A DNA stretch of 24,000 nucleotides from an uncultured archaeon (GTDB lineage: Archaea; Thermoproteota; Nitrososphaeria; Nitrososphaerales; Gagatemarchaeaceae), in the NCBI GenBank assembly GCA_963817525.1, contig CAWFOU010000008.1, positions 48,669-72,668 on the forward strand. Reading direction: 5' to 3'. A model generated the notes under the pieces. It saw nothing but the letters and a program-made list of their open reading frames with translations, made no database searches and was not told the origin of the DNA. Made by a program: the position numbers and the translations under genes. This document shows positions 6,211-17,760 of the stretch, piece after piece; within the stretch, counting starts at the first letter, position 1; each line of letters starts with the position of its first letter.

Positions 6211-7638
6211 ATGACAACAGAAGCCATGGTTGAAAGGAGATGGAGCGCCCCGAGCGTAGAGCACGACAGAGGGGACATATTCTCCACCACTCCCGACAAG
6301 GTAGACGTCGACAAGAACGTTCTGGCGACATTTTTCATCACGTGCGACCCTAGGGTCACCATCGACCAGGCCGGAGTCATCATCGCGGCGGAGCAGTCCG
6401 TAGGCACGTTCACGGACGTCTCTACGGCGACGGACCTCTCCACGAAGACAGCGGCCAAGATGTACTCTTACAAGTACGAAGACCCGTCAGGCGCGATGAA
6501 GCACTCGGGCTGGGTCAAGGTCGCGTTCCCGACCTTCCTCCTCGACCTGGACAACAGGGGGATCCCCGACCTGTTCACCTTCGTGACAGGAAACTGGATG
6601 GGTTTCACCCCGATTCCAAACTGCAAGTGGATAGATTTCACCCTCCCCAAGGACGTCTTGAAGCTCTTCAAAGGGCCAAAGTTTGGCGTCGAGGGCCTGA
6701 GGGAGATCGTCGGCACAACGAAGAGCCGGCGCCCCCACGTGGGGATCACAATCAAGCCCAAGATGGGCGTGACCGACCAGGGAGCAGCCCAGCAGTTCTA
6801 CGACGCAGCGATGGGCGGCGTCGACACCTTCAAGGACGATGAGACCTACTTCAACCAATGGTGCTCGCCGCTCCTCGACAGGGTCGCCAAGGTCTACGAG
6901 GCGCTCGACAAAGCCAAGTCGGAGGGCGCCCACCCAGGGGGCGAGTACATGTACGCGCCTCAGGTCACGGTGGACTCTGAAAAGTCGCTCGAGGTCGCGG
7001 ACAAGATGATCGCGCACGGTGCCAGGGGCCTGATGCTCAACATCATGGCGGCCTGGTACCCCGCGCTAAGGGCCCTCGCGGAGGACCCGAGCATCAACGT
7101 CCCGATCCACCTCCACAGGGCGTCGCACGCCTCCCTCACCCGCCACCCGAGGCATGGGATCAGCTTCAAGGTCATCGCCGGGCTGGGCAGGGTCGCTGGC
7201 GGGGACATGATCCACGTAGGGACCGCCAGAGGCAAGCTGGGAGACGCGATAAAGTTCGTCGAGATCCCCGAGATCATGGACGAGATGCAGCGCCCGAACG
7301 GGCACCTAAAGCCCATGATGGGCGTCGCCTCGGGAGGGCTCACGCCGAACAACTACCATTACTCCATAGACTTGATGGGCTTGGACATCCAGCTCCAGAA
7401 CGGGGGCGCGGTCCACGGGCACCCGTGGGGCACCAAGGCGGGCGCTACCGCTGCTAGGCAGGCAGTCGATGCGTACATGAAGAAGATCCCCCTTGAGGAG
7501 TACGCCAAGACCCACGCAGAGCTAGAGGCCTCTCTCCAGTTCTTCGGGCAAAAGTACGCCGTCGCGTCCGCGATGACCGTCGTACCAGAGCTCGGCAAGA
7601 AGGAGAGCGACTATAAGCACATGTTCCGCTCGGAGTAG
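6211..7638 (+). CDS. rbcL: RuBisCO large subunit, form III-like (bona fide carboxylase residues present)
   Basis: Motifs read directly: AAEQSVGTF (E60/T65), GNWMGF (N123), ITIKPKMG (T173/K175/K177), GGVDTFKDDE (K201/D203/E204), IHLHRASH (H294/R295/H298), MIHVGTARGKL (H327/K334), VASGG (S379-G381) and NGGAVHGHPWG. No small-subunit gene is nearby. Confidence 0.9.
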   Translation: MTTEAMVERRWSAPSVEHDRGDIFSTTPDKVDVDKNVLATFFITCDPRVTIDQAGVIIAAEQSVGTFTDVSTATDLSTKTAAKMYSYKYEDPSGAMKHSGWVKVAFPTFLLDLDNRGIPDLFTFVTGNWMGFTPIPNCKWIDFTLPKDVLKLFKGPKFGVEGLREIVGTTKSRRPHVGITIKPKMGVTDQGAAQQFYDAAMGGVDTFKDDETYFNQWCSPLLDRVAKVYEALDKAKSEGAHPGGEYMYAPQVTVDSEKSLEVADKMIAHGARGLMLNIMAAWYPALRALAEDPSINVPIHLHRASHASLTRHPRHGISFKVIAGLGRVAGGDMIHVGTARGKLGDAIKFVEIPEIMDEMQRPNGHLKPMMGVASGGLTPNNYHYSIDLMGLDIQLQNGGAVHGHPWGTKAGATAARQAVDAYMKKIPLEEYAKTHAELEASLQFFGQKYAVASAMTVVPELGKKESDYKHMFRSE

Positions 7639-11550: not shown

Positions 11551-12735
11551 ATGGCCGAAGATAAAGGCGGCGCGGACTCGGTAAGGCTCACCTGGCCTCC
11601 GCTGGAAGAAGACCTGAGGAGGCTCTACGTTGTGGAGAAACTTTCCGCTTCGAAGATCGCAAAGGCGTATGGACTTCAGTATGCTAGCGAAAAGACCGCG
11701 GAGTCGACGATCCTCCACCATCTCAAGAAAAACGGGATAGCCAGACGAGACGCGGCAGCGCACATCAGGAAGGTTACCCAGAAGATGGCGGACGAGTGGG
11801 TCGTCAGGTATCAGAAGGGCGAGTCGCTGAAACAGATTGCGGGGGATGCGGTCGACGCGGTCACGGTCTTCAACCATCTCCACAAGCGGGGCCTAAGCCT
11901 CAGGGACAAGGTCGAGGCGCAGATCAAGGCCGTAACGATTCACGACAAGAAGCCGTTCCAAGGGAGTCCGGCGGATCGGGCGTATCTCGCAGGAATCACG
12001 AGGGGAGATTTCTGGGCGGGACGACACGGACGTGCAGTTCGAGTTAGGCTAGGCACAACTCATCCGGACATGGCCGCCCTGTTTCGTCTGCTATTTGGGT
12101 GGCACGGTCCGATTTACGAATATCCAAAGCCCGCCGCGCTAACGGAATACGAATGGATACTAGATTGCGATCTTGACTCAAGTTTTGAGTTTCTGATACA
12201 ATCCAAGGCTGACGTATCCGAGATCATTCGCAGTTCTGACCTATTCATGAGCTTCCTCGCGGGCTTCTTCGACGCCGAGGGCACGGTCTACTTCCACAAG
12301 AAACGTAGCGGCGGTGCGTTTGAACTGGCCATGGCAAATACGGACGAAGGACTCCTCCGCGACATTAGAGACGAACTGGCGCGACGTGGATTCGCGGTCA
12401 AGCTCGAGCGAACTAAACAATATCGAGCCGAAGCCGTCAGGCGCGGAATAAAGAACCCCGGCGAGTTCATTTGGCGGATATTAGTTTGGCGATTTGAGGA
12501 CGTTCGCAGGTTGATGACGGCGATGCCAATTAGACACGCGGAGAGGACGGCCAAGTTTGCGATTGCGCTCAAGCTCGGCTACAGACCAAGGCACGAGGAT
12601 CGTGAGAGAGTATTGATTGAATGGAGGTCCCTAAGGACCTCGATTAGAACTAGCCGCGACGCCTACGTCGCCCAAGCGAAGGCAATTTGCAGCTCCAAAG
12701 AACGAAGTAAGTTTAAAACATACTCAGTTCAGTAA
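11551..12735 (+). mobile_element. Free-standing LAGLIDADG homing-endonuclease-family gene with N-terminal HTH repeats
   Basis: 394 aa with two LAGLIDADG motifs (YLAGITRGDF and FLAGFFDAEGTV). Two HTH-like units precede them (LSASKIAKAYGL...LKKNGI and ESLKQIAGDAV...LHKRGL). Visibly more AT-rich than its neighbours (26/60 G+C in 12181-12240 against 39/60 in 12841-12900 of nuoD). Confidence 0.8.
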
Positions 12736-12754: not shown

Positions 12755-13876
12755 CTAATGGTCTGCCTCGACCGGCCAATAATTCAATCCCCAGTACACT
12801 GGTGGGATGTCTGCGACGTGTATCCCCCTGAGCAGGTGGGGCATCACCCGCATGTTTTTGAAGCTCGGGACGCCGAGCTTGAGCCTGTAGGGCCGGGGGC
12901 TCCCATCGCTGACGATGAAGTAGCTCATCTCGCCGTGCGCGGCCTCCGTCCTCGCGTAGACCTCGCCTGGGGGGACGCGCGGCGCGGGGCCGAGCTTGAG
13001 CCTGACAGGGCCCGGCGGGATGTTCTTGAAGGCCTGCCTGAGGATCTTGACCGATTCCCTCATCTCGTGGAGGGCGACGTAGGCCCTCGCCCAGCAGTCG
13101 CCCTCGTTCTGCGAGGCGACCGAGAAGTCGAACTCGGGGTAGGCGCCGTAGGGCTCGGCCCTCCTGATGTCGTGCGCCACCCCTGACGCCCTCAGGACGG
13201 TGCCCGTCGCGCCAAGCCTGATGGCGTCCTCCTTGGTCAGCACGCCGACGCCCTTCGACCTCTCCTCCCAGAGGGGGTTCTTGAAGAATATCTTCTCGTA
13301 CTCGTCCATCCTCTTCTCGAACCAGTCGAGCGTCTCGAATGCCTGGGTCGTGAGGCCCTCGGGCATGTCGTTCCTCACCCCCCCGGGTATGATGTACGCG
13401 AAGGTGACCCGGGCGCCCCCGATCCTGGCTGCGATGTCGATGAAGAGGTCCCTGTCTCCCATGCACCATGTGATCATGGTGGTCTGCCCCACGAAGAGGC
13501 CGAGGATGCCCAGGTAGTACTCGTGGGAGATTATCCTGTTGAGCTCCGCCATTATGACCCGGAGGTACTCGGCCCTGGGCGGGATCTTGTTGTTCATGAG
13601 CTGGTCGACCGCGAGGGAGTAGGCGAAGAGTATCCCGGAGCTGTCGAGGATGACTGGCCTCTCGAGGTGGGGGACGTTCTGGATGTAGTTCCTGTACTCG
13701 CACATCTTCTCCTCGCCCCTGTGCACGTAGCCGGGGTCGGGGTCCGCCCTGACCACATAGTCCCCGTCGAGCCAAAGGCGGATGCGAAAGTGGCCGGCCC
13801 CCGGGTGCTGTGGCCCGAGCGAGACGGCCATGATCTTGTCCGAGTCCGGCGAGTACTCGAAGGCTGCGGATGCCAT
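12755..13876 (-). CDS. nuoD: NADH:quinone oxidoreductase subunit D (49-kDa/Nqo4 family)
   Basis: Motifs LGPQHPGAGHFR and GYVHRGEEK, with the C-terminal ...PPVYWGLNYWPVEADH. 373 aa. Starts 3 nt after the nuoC stop. Confidence 0.92.
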   Translation of the reverse strand: MASAAFEYSPDSDKIMAVSLGPQHPGAGHFRIRLWLDGDYVVRADPDPGYVHRGEEKMCEYRNYIQNVPHLERPVILDSSGILFAYSLAVDQLMNNKIPPRAEYLRVIMAELNRIISHEYYLGILGLFVGQTTMITWCMGDRDLFIDIAARIGGARVTFAYIIPGGVRNDMPEGLTTQAFETLDWFEKRMDEYEKIFFKNPLWEERSKGVGVLTKEDAIRLGATGTVLRASGVAHDIRRAEPYGAYPEFDFSVASQNEGDCWARAYVALHEMRESVKILRQAFKNIPPGPVRLKLGPAPRVPPGEVYARTEAAHGEMSYFIVSDGSPRPYRLKLGVPSFKNMRVMPHLLRGIHVADIPPVYWGLNYWPVEADH

Positions 13877-13879
13877 TGC

Positions 13880-14470
13880 CTATCGCCCCGGCGAGACGTA
13901 GTCCTTCCTCAGCGGCGGGATGTCGTTCCAGTCCTCGGGGAGGAGCAGGCGCCTCAGGTCTGGGTGCCCCTCGAAGACTATCCCCAGCATCTCGAAGGTC
14001 TCCCTCTCGTGGTACTCGGCGCCGGTCCAGACGCCGACGAGCGACGGGGCCTTTGGGGAGTCCTCCCTGGGCAGCCGCTCCGCGAGCTGGACGACCAGGT
14101 CCTGCTGCCCGGGGACCGAGAGAGAGCCCACGAAGTAGATGACCTCGAACTCCTTCAGCGCGATGTAGTCCGTCCCGCCCACCACGTTGAGGTGGTCGAA
14201 CCCCAGCCCGTCCCGCACGTAGATGGCGACGTCCTTGATCTGGGCGGGAGAGGCGGTGACCTTCACCCTGTGCGGCTTGACATAGTCCACCTTCGTGGAT
14301 GGGAACTTCGCGACTATCTTGTCGGCGAGCGACTTGGTCCTGGACGTGTCAGGAGGAGCGGGGGCGGGCGCTGGAGCCGCAGGGGGAGCCGGGGCTGGGG
14401 CGGCGGCGGGAGGCTGAGGGGGAGCGGGGGGCGGGGCGCTGGCGTTCTGGGCGGGTTGGGCTGGTTGCAC
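13880..14470 (-). CDS. nuoC: NADH:quinone oxidoreductase subunit C (30-kDa/Nqo5 family) with Pro/Ala-rich N-terminal extension
   Basis: Contains AEYHERETFEMLGIVFEGHPDLRRLLLPEDW. GTG start at 14470 is preceded by GAGAGGAATTGTGA, an SD-like sequence. The first ~40 residues are almost only P/A/Q. Confidence 0.88.
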   Translation of the reverse strand: MQPAQPAQNASAPPPAPPQPPAAAPAPAPPAAPAPAPAPPDTSRTKSLADKIVAKFPSTKVDYVKPHRVKVTASPAQIKDVAIYVRDGLGFDHLNVVGGTDYIALKEFEVIYFVGSLSVPGQQDLVVQLAERLPREDSPKAPSLVGVWTGAEYHERETFEMLGIVFEGHPDLRRLLLPEDWNDIPPLRKDYVSPGR

Positions 14471-14506: not shown

Positions 14507-17395
14507 CTACGTCCCGCGCAGGCTGTTCGAGTGCCTGATCTTCTCTTGGAGGAGGCCGACGCCCTGCATGAGCGCCTCTGCGCGCGGCGGGCACCCGGGC
14601 ACGTAGACGTCCACTGGGATGATGTCGTCGATCCCCCTGAGGACGTTGTATGAATCGAAATACAGGCCGCCGGTGATGGAGCAGTTGTGGACGAGCTGCC
14701 CGTTTGCGAAGAAGTTGTGGTACCCCGCGACCTCGATGTCGTAGACGGCATCGCTCCCTCTCGGAATGACAGAGGTGACGCGCTGCAGGCTGATTCCCGC
14801 ATGGTTTGTCCTGAGCATTCCTTTGCCTTCGAATGATCGCGAACCCGTTTTTACCCTGGTTCGATAGTCGGACCGGTATAGAGGCAATTTAGCAATCACC
14901 GACATGGGGAAACTTATGATGTATTCAGTGGTCTTCAATTGTCTTCCCTCGAGGCAATTCTCCTTTTCCTTCACGAAGACTCCCCCGACATGTATACCTC
15001 GATAGTGACATAGCTGGACGACATCCATCATCAAGTCCTTGTTCGCCGAGGAGAGTTGCCCGAAACCCTCCTTCTGTACGTAGCCATCCGACTCAATCAA
15101 TCCAGCCAAGAAACTGAGAACGGAAGATATGGGCAACGTGTAGACCCAGGATGGGATTCTCTTGGTGTGGACGTCTCCCACGAGTCCGAGCGATTCGAAC
15201 ATCCCTGCGACGGTGCTTGACCAAATCATTACCTGCCTGCCCTCGTGAGGTTTGAATCCGAAGAGTTCAGTGACGAGCCTCACCAGCTTGTCCCTGGAGA
15301 GGTCTCCTTTCATCAAGGAGAATCCTACGCAGTACTTGTTCTTCCAGCCGTCGCCAAGATAGAGCCCTGCCAACCACGCAAGGCCGTCATCGACGGTCTC
15401 AGGAATTCTGGCTTGCTTTCGAACTGCTCCTCGGTGCTGATAGTTGATTCTAGCTGGCGCCCCTCCGGGAAATTCCGAATAGGTGACCAGTAAGTCTTCT
15501 TCGCAAAGTTCCAGAGCGTTTTTCCAGACCAAATCGAGTCCGTACTTCGATGGCGGATGGCTCCTCCAATATGACAGAGTTTTGCTGCCGACACCTAGTA
15601 GATCCGAGACGTCGTTGAGGGGGAACCCCTCGTCTATCATGGCCAGGAGGGACTTGTACGCGACCCATTTTCTTGACAACGTCCGCTCGTAGACCGCAAA
15701 TGGATGGTCCTCGGTTGCCACGGATTCGTAGGAGCCGGCACGCACGCGGAAGACTGGTCTGACTCCTTGATCCTTTCTCGCAATTACGGGAGCCTCAACC
15801 ACTCGCTTTTGCTCCTCATCGTACGAGTAGACTGTTTCGCCTGGCCCGACTTCGTCCATGCGTCGCAGGCCACCGGGCGTGTAGACCATGGAATCACCCC
15901 GTTCGCACGCACCCATAGCGATCACCCACTTCGGTTCGGGCATCTGGTCGTAGATCAGCTTGAGCCTAGGGGCGAGCTTGCGCGTCACGGTGCCCATCAC
16001 TATGATGAGGTCGCACTGCCTGAGGGAGCCGAAGGCCTCCAGGATCCCGAAGCGCTCGGCGTCGAACCTTGAGCCGGCGACGGCCCCGACCTCGACAGAG
16101 CAGTTGTGGACTACGGCGTTCGAGACGAGGTAGGTGTTGTCTCCGGTTTCCAGATTGTGGACGGGGCCAGAGTAGTCCACCCGTTCCACCTTTCTGATCG
16201 GGACTACGATAAACTCGGGAGTCATCCGGAAATCCGAAACCTTCCTCTCGGAGGTCAGGGTCGAAATGGTGTAGGAATCATGCGTCATCACATCTCGGCC
16301 TAGAATCTTGGAAGCGCCTCCGTTTGCCTTTCTGTTTATCCTGGCGAAAGTACCGAACCTCGCATAAGCAAGCTGGAGTTGGAGAGCCAGCGTCTTCGAT
16401 GTGGTATCAGCTTTGGCGAACTCAGGGCCTCTCTTGTCGGTGATCTCGGCTCCGTCGCCCTGGAGGTAGCCCTGAAGGAATGACCTGAGCAGATCGAGGT
16501 CCTTGTGGTACAGGATAAAGTCGGGAATCTTCTTGTTCTCGGCGAGGTGTCCGCACCATTCATGGAACGCGCGGGCCAGGATGGCCGAGGAGAATCTCAC
16601 CACGGTTGCCGTGTCCCGTCTCTTCACTTGAGGGGAATATCCCAATGACTTTGCGATCTCGAAAATCCGGGATCTCAGGTTCACTTCGTCGTGGCTCAGA
16701 GAGAAGGAGATGTCGTGCCCTACCGTGTCCCATCCTTCGGCGACGAAGATTCCTAAGAGCCAAGCGGTGTCCGTATTGAGGGGGAACTCCAGAGGAGGTT
16801 TTTCTCCTCGCCCACGGACTATATTCAGTCCTCGGCTTGTGGCATAGGACGCTAGTGGGATGGATCGGGAATCGACGAACCCCTTGGGCCGGGGAATCAG
16901 CAGGCAGTCGTGAGAGCCCTTTGGGTAGAGGAACTTGCCATTCTTCTTCATTGGCTGGGAAGCCACGAGGTCTCCGGCCTTCTTCCATACCTTCTCCGAG
17001 AGATAGGCGCCCTTCCCGTAGGAGAGCTGCCTGCCTACCGTGAGGACGGGATGCTCTGGAGTCGCGAGTATCGGGAGCATCCCGCGGCCCGAAATTTTGA
17101 CTAGTTCCCCCCGATACTGCCTAGAGAACGTATCGACTACGTCCACGAGCCCTGTCATGCCCGTGACCTTGTCTTTGACTGCGTACTGCGAGATCGGCTT
17201 GTTGTCTCCCAGGACTATGGTGTCTGGTGGGACGCAACACGCCGTCTCCAGGTGGACGGGCCAGAGGCTGTAGAGCCTCCCCCAGTTGGCCATGTAGCGG
17301 AGGGGGGCCCCGATGGTGTCTTGGAGGAAGTCGTTGACCCTTCCCACGAGGACGTTGACCTCCCCGGTCTTCGGGACCTGCGCGGACTCTACCAT
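14507..17395 (-). CDS. nuoB: NADH:quinone oxidoreductase subunit B (PSST/Nqo6) precursor, 962 aa, carrying two inteins; predicted mature extein 176 aa
   Basis: ATG 17395 overlaps the nuoA stop by 7 nt. Exteins: MVESAQ...[10 protein letters not shown] | [65 protein letters not shown] | [36 protein letters not shown]... Joining them restores the CCxxE, GxCxxxGG and CPP motifs of NuoB. Confidence 0.9.
14684..15907 (-). mobile_element. Intein 2 of NuoB (408 aa, HTH-like insert plus LAGLIDADG domain)
   Basis: Begins [10 protein letters not shown]. Has TxxH in [14 protein letters not shown]-like [29 protein letters not shown] motifs [11 protein letters not shown] and [12 protein letters not shown]. 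Ends [21 protein letters not shown], followed by +1 Cys (TGC 14683-14681). AT-rich (24/60 G+C in 14881-14940). Confidence 0.85.
16103..17236 (-). mobile_element. Intein 1 of NuoB (378 aa, LAGLIDADG homing-endonuclease domain)
   Basis: Begins [10 protein letters not shown] (block A). Has TxxH in [11 protein letters not shown] (block B). LAGLIDADG motifs [11 protein letters not shown] and [11 protein letters not shown]. Ends [22 protein letters not shown], followed by +1 Cys (TGC 16102-16100). Coordinates were verified codon by codon. Confidence 0.85.
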
Positions 17396-17760
17396 ATCTC
17401 TCGCTTCCCCGCCAGGTGCACGGTGAGGCCCATGGGTATCAGGAGGGCGCCGACGAACACGAGCATCATCCAGCTTGAGAGCTGCCCCAGGGCGAGCGGC
17501 TGGTAGGCCACCGCCCAGGCGAAGAGGAACATCGCCATGACGTCGAAGACGACGAACAGCAGGAGATAGGCGTAGTACTGCATCATGAAGTGCATCTTCC
17601 CCCGTCCTCGGGGGACTTGGCCGGCCTCGAAGGTCTCGTTCTTTATCGGGTTGGGGCTCTTGGGGGCGAGGATCCTCGGGACGATGAGCATTATGCCGGT
17701 GAAGAGGATGCCCACGCCGCCCATAACGAAGACGGCCGCAACGTTCCCAAAGATCGCCAA
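17389..17760 (-). CDS. nuoA: NADH:quinone oxidoreductase subunit A
   Basis: 123 aa with three hydrophobic helices and a conserved-type loop, [11 protein letters not shown] start at 17760 (in-frame stop 4 codons upstream). First gene of nuoABCD. Confidence 0.85.

Follow-up and report, generated by a model that had tools for sequence, protein, structure and literature searches.

Intein hosts have been described mainly among proteins of replication, repair and nucleotide metabolism. Control of splicing by disulfides has precedents in the intein of P. abyssi MoaA (PMC10663303) and in the mycobacterial SufB and DnaB inteins (PMC8891592, PMC6195587), and in haloarchaeal MCM a single gene has several intein sites (a–d), every combination of occupied and empty sites being found in the population (PMC10643990). 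Here we analyzed a stretch of 24,000 nucleotides (the window) from an uncultured soil archaeon of the Nitrososphaerota (GenBank assembly GCA_963817525.1, contig CAWFOU010000008.1, positions 48,669 to 72,668; contig_23274, 517,943 bp, of assembly ERZ25039507 in ENA). In this window nuoB, the gene for a subunit of respiratory complex I that holds the ligands of Fe-S cluster N2, is interrupted by two insertions, identified below as inteins and termed intein a and intein b. Both the type of element and its mechanism are textbook; the host proteins and the insertion sites are new.

Complex I appears to be undescribed so far as an intein host. A full-text literature search found no paper in which NuoB, NuoI or another complex I subunit is described as carrying an intein, and no NADH or Fe-S host is named in the main text of the intein survey by Novikova (2016). 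A paper on Azotobacter that came up in the literature search was set aside, as it concerns ribonucleotide reductase (RNR) inteins. The initial annotation of the window, made from its letters alone, had also placed complex I outside the known intein hosts. This holds for the literature and less so for the databases, in which such sequences are abundant and some are automatically labelled by JGI as 'NuoB-like Fe-S oxidoreductase/intein/homing endonuclease'.

Results

Architecture of the nuoB precursor

The nuoB frame belongs to a nuoA-B-C-D cluster, with nuoA, nuoC and nuoD as neighbours (Table 1), and is unbroken over 962 codons plus stop, with no stop or frameshift in 2886 nucleotides (nt). 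The initial annotation had divided its product into insertions of 378 and 408 amino acids (aa) and a 176-aa remainder. An independent parse, which placed the insertions at precursor aa 54–431 (intein a) and aa 497–904 (intein b), returned the same numbers. When both inteins are taken out, a 176-aa NuoB is left, in which the two sites are separated by 65 codons. The precursor is 5.5 times as long as this mature form, which needs two splicing events. The junctions, ETAC/CVPPDT...AVVHN/CSVEV for intein a and MGA/CERGDS...QLVHN/CSITGG for intein b (slashes mark the splice points), read as had been proposed, intein a lying between the tandem cysteines and intein b before the cysteine of the GxCxxxGG motif.

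Table 1. Features of the nuoB locus and of other genes discussed in the text (positions in the window).
Feature	Position	Strand	Description
nuoB precursor	14507..17395	-	962 aa + stop; three extein segments, two inteins
N-extein	17237..17395	-	aa 1-53; ends ...HLETAC (Cys53 = first tandem N2 Cys)
Intein a	16103..17236	-	378 aa; Cys1 (CVPPDT), block B TPEH, end VVHN, then Cys+1 = extein Cys54
Intein a, block B	17051-17065	-	ATPEH
Intein a, LAGLIDADG motif 1	16730..16762	-	11 aa, VAEG; acidic Glu kept in at least 90% of homologues
Intein a, LAGLIDADG motif 2	16451..16480	-	10 aa, QGDG; Asp invariant in 15 double-intein alleles
Middle extein	15908..16102	-	65 aa; CSVEV...VIAMGA
Intein b	14684..15907	-	408 aa; Cys1 (CERGDS), block B TEDH, end LVHN, then Cys+1 = extein Cys119 (third N2 ligand)
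Intein b, block B	15704-15718	-	ATEDH
Intein b, LAGLIDADG motif 1	15344..15382	-	13 aa, LGDG; Asp invariant
Intein b, LAGLIDADG motif 2	15083..15112	-	10 aa, ESDG; Asp invariant
C-extein	14507..14683	-	58 aa + stop; CSITGG...VPGCPP...; holds fourth N2 Cys (extein Cys149)
nuoA	17389..17760	-	Oxidored_q4; end overlaps nuoB start
nuoC	13880..14470	-	Complex1_30kDa
nuoD	12755..13876	-	Complex1_49kDa
LAGLIDADG_3 reading frame	11551-12735	+	394 aa
RuBisCO large-subunit gene	6211-7638	+	475 aa; RuBisCO_large_N and RuBisCO_large in precomputed Pfam matches

The spliced product and the ligands of cluster N2

The host protein is an ordinary NuoB. The NCBIfam NuoB model NF005012 matched the spliced 176-aa product in one stretch over residues 32–171 (E 3.5e-60; 202.3 bits, cutoff 116); in the unspliced precursor it matched only in pieces. 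Pfam reported Oxidored_q6, LAGLIDADG_3, Intein_splicing and Hom_end on the nuoB product. The joined exteins aligned with the PSST, NUKM and Nqo6 chains of solved complex I structures (E down to 8e-50) and were gapless over the ACC and MGAC motifs, in accordance with the earlier prediction that they would be collinear with NuoB across both cysteine motifs. A search with the spliced sequence also found a natural intein-free NuoB of 176 aa (P0273), which is identical to it at 175 of 176 positions, without gaps. The DNA of this allele (loci L083–L085) is 91–92% identical to the window over the exteins, and the identity breaks exactly at both intein boundaries. This result indicates that a close relative naturally encodes the predicted ligated product without interruption.

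In the alignment with Yarrowia NUKM (query 31–171 to chain 63–202), extein Cys53 and Cys54 correspond to C85 and C86, the tandem pair of N2 ligands (PMC8042128). All four extein cysteines concerned (C53, C54, C119 and C149) align with conserved cysteines of the solved PSST/NUKM chains in the order CC...C...CPP. As judged from these alignments, intein a separates the two adjacent Cys ligands of cluster N2, and intein b directly precedes the third N2 cysteine. The claim that three of the four N2 ligands are found at splice junctions is borne out by the same correspondences, Cys53 and Cys54 flanking intein a and Cys119 being the +1 residue of intein b. One divergent double-intein NuoB (P0021; L004 6001–8823) has PGRPP where all others have PGCPP; this change of the fourth N2 cysteine to Arg may reflect either an error in sequencing or a genuine ligand loss.

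Identity of the inteins

Both insertions carry the Hint signature, including the N-terminal nucleophile (C54 in intein a and C497 in intein b, in precursor numbering), the block B residues (T112/H115 and T561/H564) and VVHN or LVHN followed by Cys. At both inteins, Cys1, the block B Thr and His, the terminal His-Asn and Cys+1 did not vary among 15 double-intein homologues (53–77% identity). In the same homologues, and also in larger alignments, the acidic residue of each of the four LAGLIDADG motifs was invariant or nearly so, which confirms the reading of two motifs with a retained acidic residue in each intein.

The profile searches agreed with the proposed domains in part. Pfam LAGLIDADG_3 scored above its cutoff of 22.5 bits for both inteins (38.7 and 29.5 bits), and Intein_splicing scored above its cutoff for intein b (38.6 bits, cutoff 35.8); the Hint domain of intein a fell below that cutoff. 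Sequence similarity to PI-PkoII was found for both inteins, and in a sequence search of the PDB the match of intein a to this protein was confined to the endonuclease region. For these reasons, structures were predicted with AlphaFold (AF2) from homologue alignments and compared with the PDB using Foldseek. The predicted local distance difference test score (pLDDT) was 89.2 for intein a, with a predicted template modelling score (pTM) of 0.88, and 85.7 for intein b. The top PDB match for both models was the TliVMA intein (7qsu), with E values of 1.5e-19 and 8e-21, followed by PhoVMA, PI-SceI, PI-PkoII and PI-PfuI. Further down the ranking, the endonuclease half matched I-DmoI and the Hint half matched mini-inteins. 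On the basis of the signature residues, the Pfam matches and the predicted folds, both insertions are identified as class-1 inteins with a nested two-motif LAGLIDADG homing endonuclease.

The exteins have a G+C content (GC) of 0.64–0.65 and a G+C content at third codon positions (GC3) of 0.89–0.93; the corresponding values for the inteins are 0.54–0.56 and 0.65–0.70. In the other genes of the window, GC3 ranges from 0.71 to 0.91 and is at least 0.78 in all but one. The lower GC3 of the inteins compared with the host gene, which had been noticed in short samples of sequence, is therefore present over their full lengths. The ratio of nonsynonymous to synonymous divergence (dN/dS), calculated in pairwise comparisons, was roughly 0.18 for intein a, roughly 0.16 for intein b and roughly 0.05 for the exteins. 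In the same genome pairs, synonymous divergence (dS) was higher in the inteins than in the exteins. We considered this difference as a sign of horizontal transfer and rejected it, because inteins and exteins have strongly different codon bias. From the conserved catalytic residues and the strong purifying selection on the exteins, we infer that the inteins splice autocatalytically in vivo. The patchy alleles and the mini-intein derivatives described below suggest that the free inteins probably act as site-specific endonucleases on intein-free alleles.

Distribution and allele states

A search with the full precursor returned 307 proteins from NCBI, ENA, JGI and Logan. The best 120 of these were all intein-bearing NuoB: about 76 had intein a only (~551–554 aa), 23 had intein b only (~582–585 aa) and 21 had both (~960 aa). 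Three of the same 120 carry at site b a mini-intein of 192–225 aa that has lost the endonuclease; examples of mini-inteins at this site are P0022, P0023, P0026 and L038. The named intein-NuoB entries come from metagenome-assembled genomes (MAGs) of Nitrososphaerales/Thaumarchaeota, and the sources of the relatives are soil, peat and groundwater MAGs.

Intein-free and single-intein alleles, which had been proposed as something to look for at the two sites, were found at both. Relatives are encoded at 446 loci of the GTDB species set, and 74 of the best 80 were complete enough to score. Among these 74 loci, 41 had no intein, 21 had intein a only, 7 had intein b only and 5 had both; the counts are not an unbiased frequency, because the ranking favours intein-bearing loci. 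On a tree of the exteins, the allele states were intermingled, and Fitch parsimony requires a minimum of approximately 14 changes of state for site a and 11 for site b. The nearest neighbours of the window on this tree include loci with no intein (L040 and L041), with intein a only (L007) and with intein b only (L005 and L009). In addition, some MAGs have two nuoB loci of differing state: in YP3.bin16, one locus has intein b only and the other intein a only (L025 and L028), and in MFD03726.bin.2.137 one has intein a only and the other none (L033 and L055). Such MAGs either contain paralogous nuo clusters or combine several strains in one bin. A search of viral contigs, by a method that detects close relatives only, found none for either intein.

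Inteins in NuoI and in other hosts

NuoI of the same organism (P0481, 543 aa; L082 8001–9632) carries an intein in its second 4Fe-4S (ferredoxin) motif, with the junctions DYGRCVFCGL/CLAPDT...LATSN/CVDACP, and here the +1 residue is again a [4Fe-4S] ligand. The gene is located in a nuoH-I-J-K-L/M/N cluster apart from nuoABCD, on the same contig and ~20–30 kb away (L082 comprises positions of about 2009–19640 of contig_23274, outside the window). With two inteins in NuoB and one in NuoI, three splicing events would be required for a functional Fe-S chain of complex I in this organism. NuoI with inteins is widespread: 513 intein-bearing relatives were found, the double-intein forms being ~908 aa long. 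One example, from another Nitrososphaerota MAG with the gene order nuoB-nuoI-nuoC-nuoD (L031 7335–10361), is a NuoI-like ferredoxin with two inteins six extein residues apart (DYGR/C...HN/CVFCGF/C...SN/CVDACP).

A search of 1.84 billion cluster representatives found 251 with a full-length match to intein a at E<1e-30. They lie in many different hosts and are 31–50% identical to intein a, except for the NuoB representative itself (63%). The hosts of the intein-a family (P0124–P0272), as assigned by Pfam, include SufB, thioredoxin, the primase large subunit, radical SAM proteins, dCMP deaminase and sugar-nucleotide enzymes. Cys+1 is present in 104 of 114 full-length relatives. In 38 of the 114 (33%, against a background Cys frequency of 1.6%) there is a Cys at position -3, and in these the intein splits a CxxC motif of the host before the second Cys, for example in thioredoxin (WCGP/C) and in zinc ribbons. 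The Cys-Cys site in NuoB, with its Cys at -1, is an exception in this family.

A further intein was seen in a geranylgeranyl-reductase-like flavoprotein (L078 10640–12526; ..PAGY/CVAPGT...FNVHN/CWVFPKG), a few kb from an intein-free nuoB. Overall, inteins in metabolic enzymes seem to be abundant in the Nitrososphaerota genomes of this set.

Neighbouring genes

The 394-aa reading frame next to nuoD (Table 1) has an N-terminal region like a helix-turn-helix (HTH), a LAGLIDADG_3 match (E 1.8e-7) and a GC3 of 0.64, similar to that of the inteins. The frame and nuoD are convergent, their ends 20 bp apart. We considered this frame as a third, degenerate intein and rejected the assignment: it has no Hint features, it lies on the opposite strand, and its place beside nuoD is conserved in 25 or more of 80 related loci, among them some whose nuoB is intein-free. 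The frame is thus a gene in its own right, which may encode a domesticated LAGLIDADG protein or a regulator. The RuBisCO large-subunit gene, which is located elsewhere in the window, has ribose-phosphate pyrophosphokinase-like and IF-2B-family genes nearby. Together they suggest a pathway of the form III/nucleotide-salvage type in this archaeon, and the RuBisCO gene suggests that the lineage is not an ammonia oxidiser.

Discussion

We consider it very likely that two standard class-1 LAGLIDADG inteins, which splice and home, have invaded separate sites in nuoB of this soil Nitrososphaerota archaeon. According to this model, nuoB would be translated as a 962-aa precursor, from which each intein would excise itself autocatalytically in the usual way: after an N-S acyl shift at Cys1 and transesterification to Cys+1, the terminal Asn would cyclise and an S-N shift would follow. 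The products would be the 176-aa NuoB and the two inteins in free form, which would cleave intein-free nuoB at a site spanning the insertion point, whereupon repair would copy them into it (homing). Cluster N2 could be bound only after both splicing events, which is the order of cluster insertion that we infer. Insertion at the codons of the N2 cysteines is explained by the required +1 nucleophile, which these residues supply, and by the DNA there, which is nearly invariant and indispensable, so that the host is unable to remove the intein imprecisely and the intein is protected. On present evidence, the dependence of N2 assembly on splicing is a consequence of the location of the inteins and not a regulatory device. 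The occurrence of all four allele states, together with the mini-inteins and the lower GC3, is the pattern expected from a homing cycle in which inteins invade, become fixed, lose their endonuclease and are at last deleted precisely. The patchy distribution of the inteins among close relatives argues for a selfish mobile element and not for a required regulator.

Several observations weigh against this interpretation. The Hint domain of intein a remains under the Pfam Intein_splicing gathering threshold (18.1 versus 35.8 bits), and its assignment depends on the predicted fold together with the signature residues. With synonymous sites nearly saturated, the dN/dS values are rough, and the extein tree, at 465 nt, is short and weakly resolved, so that the counts of gains and losses are approximate. 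In addition, given the MAGs with two nuoB loci, this genome may contain a second, intein-free nuoB elsewhere.

Three other explanations were weighed against the same data. The inteins could be fixed, decaying passengers that keep splicing with inactive endonucleases, are inherited only vertically and are occasionally deleted precisely. Such an origin would fit the endonuclease-less mini-inteins at site b, the Val that replaces the motif-1 Glu of intein a in P0019, and the viral contigs, where no close relatives, and hence no vector, came into view. However, the catalytic Asp or Glu of all four LAGLIDADG motifs is kept across homologues at 53–79% identity, the endonuclease regions are under purifying selection (dN/dS of about 0.16–0.18 over the whole inteins), and the allele states are intermingled among close extein relatives, all of which makes purely vertical decay an unlikely account. 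Much harder to sustain is a dead gene or a chimeric assembly artefact, toward which nothing specific points beyond the origin of the sequence in a metagenome assembly. The open frame, the intact operon context, the same architecture in more than 300 independent NCBI, ENA, JGI and Logan sequences and in dozens of GTDB genomes, and an extein dN/dS of 0.05–0.08 in intein-bearing alleles make this explanation so improbable that we rejected it.

The splicing of one or both NuoB inteins could also be conditional on redox or Fe-S status and could gate N2 maturation and complex I assembly; for example, disulfides among Cys-1, Cys1 and Cys+1 might trap the precursor. Junction a brings three cysteines next to each other (C(-1), C1 and C+1), which would allow such bonds, an N-extein Cys is disulfide-bonded to Cys1 in P. 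abyssi MoaA (PMC10663303), and the M. smegmatis DnaB intein is an oxidative stress sensor (PMC6195587). The intein at a [4Fe-4S] Cys of NuoI in the same organism, and the one third of intein-a relatives that lie in CxxC motifs, point in the same direction. However, close relatives do without either intein, including the one with the 99%-identical NuoB, and all four allele states in the nearest clade argue that the inteins are not a required control element; moreover, Cys1 and Cys+1 are the norm in the intein-a family. Redox-gated splicing of these inteins, which has respectable precedents and no specific support here, is speculation, and we hold it to be quite improbable. We give similarly little credence to a broader proposal, in which the complex I Fe-S subunits of a clade of soil Nitrososphaerota would be an undescribed hotspot for inteins on [4Fe-4S] cysteines (sites a and b in NuoB, and one or two sites within CxxCxxCxxxCP in NuoI), occupied by families that preferentially target Cys motifs such as CxxC and whose splicing is coupled to redox or Fe-S status. 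If this were true, maturation of the electron-transfer chain of complex I would be under post-translational control.

The presence of these inteins in nuoB extends the intein host range to energy metabolism, namely to a core respiratory enzyme and to the ligands of its terminal Fe-S cluster. The intein-free, single-intein, double-intein and mini-intein alleles provide a natural series for the interplay of Fe-S insertion and splicing and for conditional splicing, and the inteins themselves are new Cys-junction inteins from mesophilic archaea. The results also carry a warning for annotation: Nitrososphaerota entries of 550–960 aa named 'NuoB', and those of 540–910 aa named 'NuoI' or 'LAGLIDADG endonuclease', are intein precursors.

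Comparison with known systems

In architecture, the two inteins resemble the TliVMA and PhoVMA inteins (7qsu, 7qss, 7qst), PI-SceI (1vde, 1ef0), PI-PkoII (2cw7) and PI-PfuI (1dq3), with which they share the Hint domain with a nested two-motif LAGLIDADG endonuclease, Cys1, the block B TxxH, the terminal HN and a +1 nucleophile. They differ from these solved inteins in sequence, with an identity of only 14–18%, and in host, as the hosts of the solved inteins are V-ATPase, DNA polymerase and ribonucleotide reductase and not complex I. Like the P. abyssi MoaA and the Mycobacterium SufB and DnaB inteins, they have Cys junctions in an Fe-S-related or redox-sensitive host; unlike these, the NuoB inteins are placed directly on the cluster-ligating cysteines of an electron-transfer subunit. 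The CxxC-splitting sites of the intein-a family have the same geometry as the redox trap of MoaA, whereas in NuoB the extra N-extein Cys is at -1 and not at -3, and a redox dependence of the NuoB inteins is hypothetical. In its polymorphic occupancy of more than one site, NuoB is similar to haloarchaeal MCM, from which it differs in host protein and lineage. The spliced product, finally, has the CC...C...CPP set of canonical NuoB/Nqo6/PSST/NUKM and the nuoA-B-C-D synteny, and differs from them in being encoded as a precursor.

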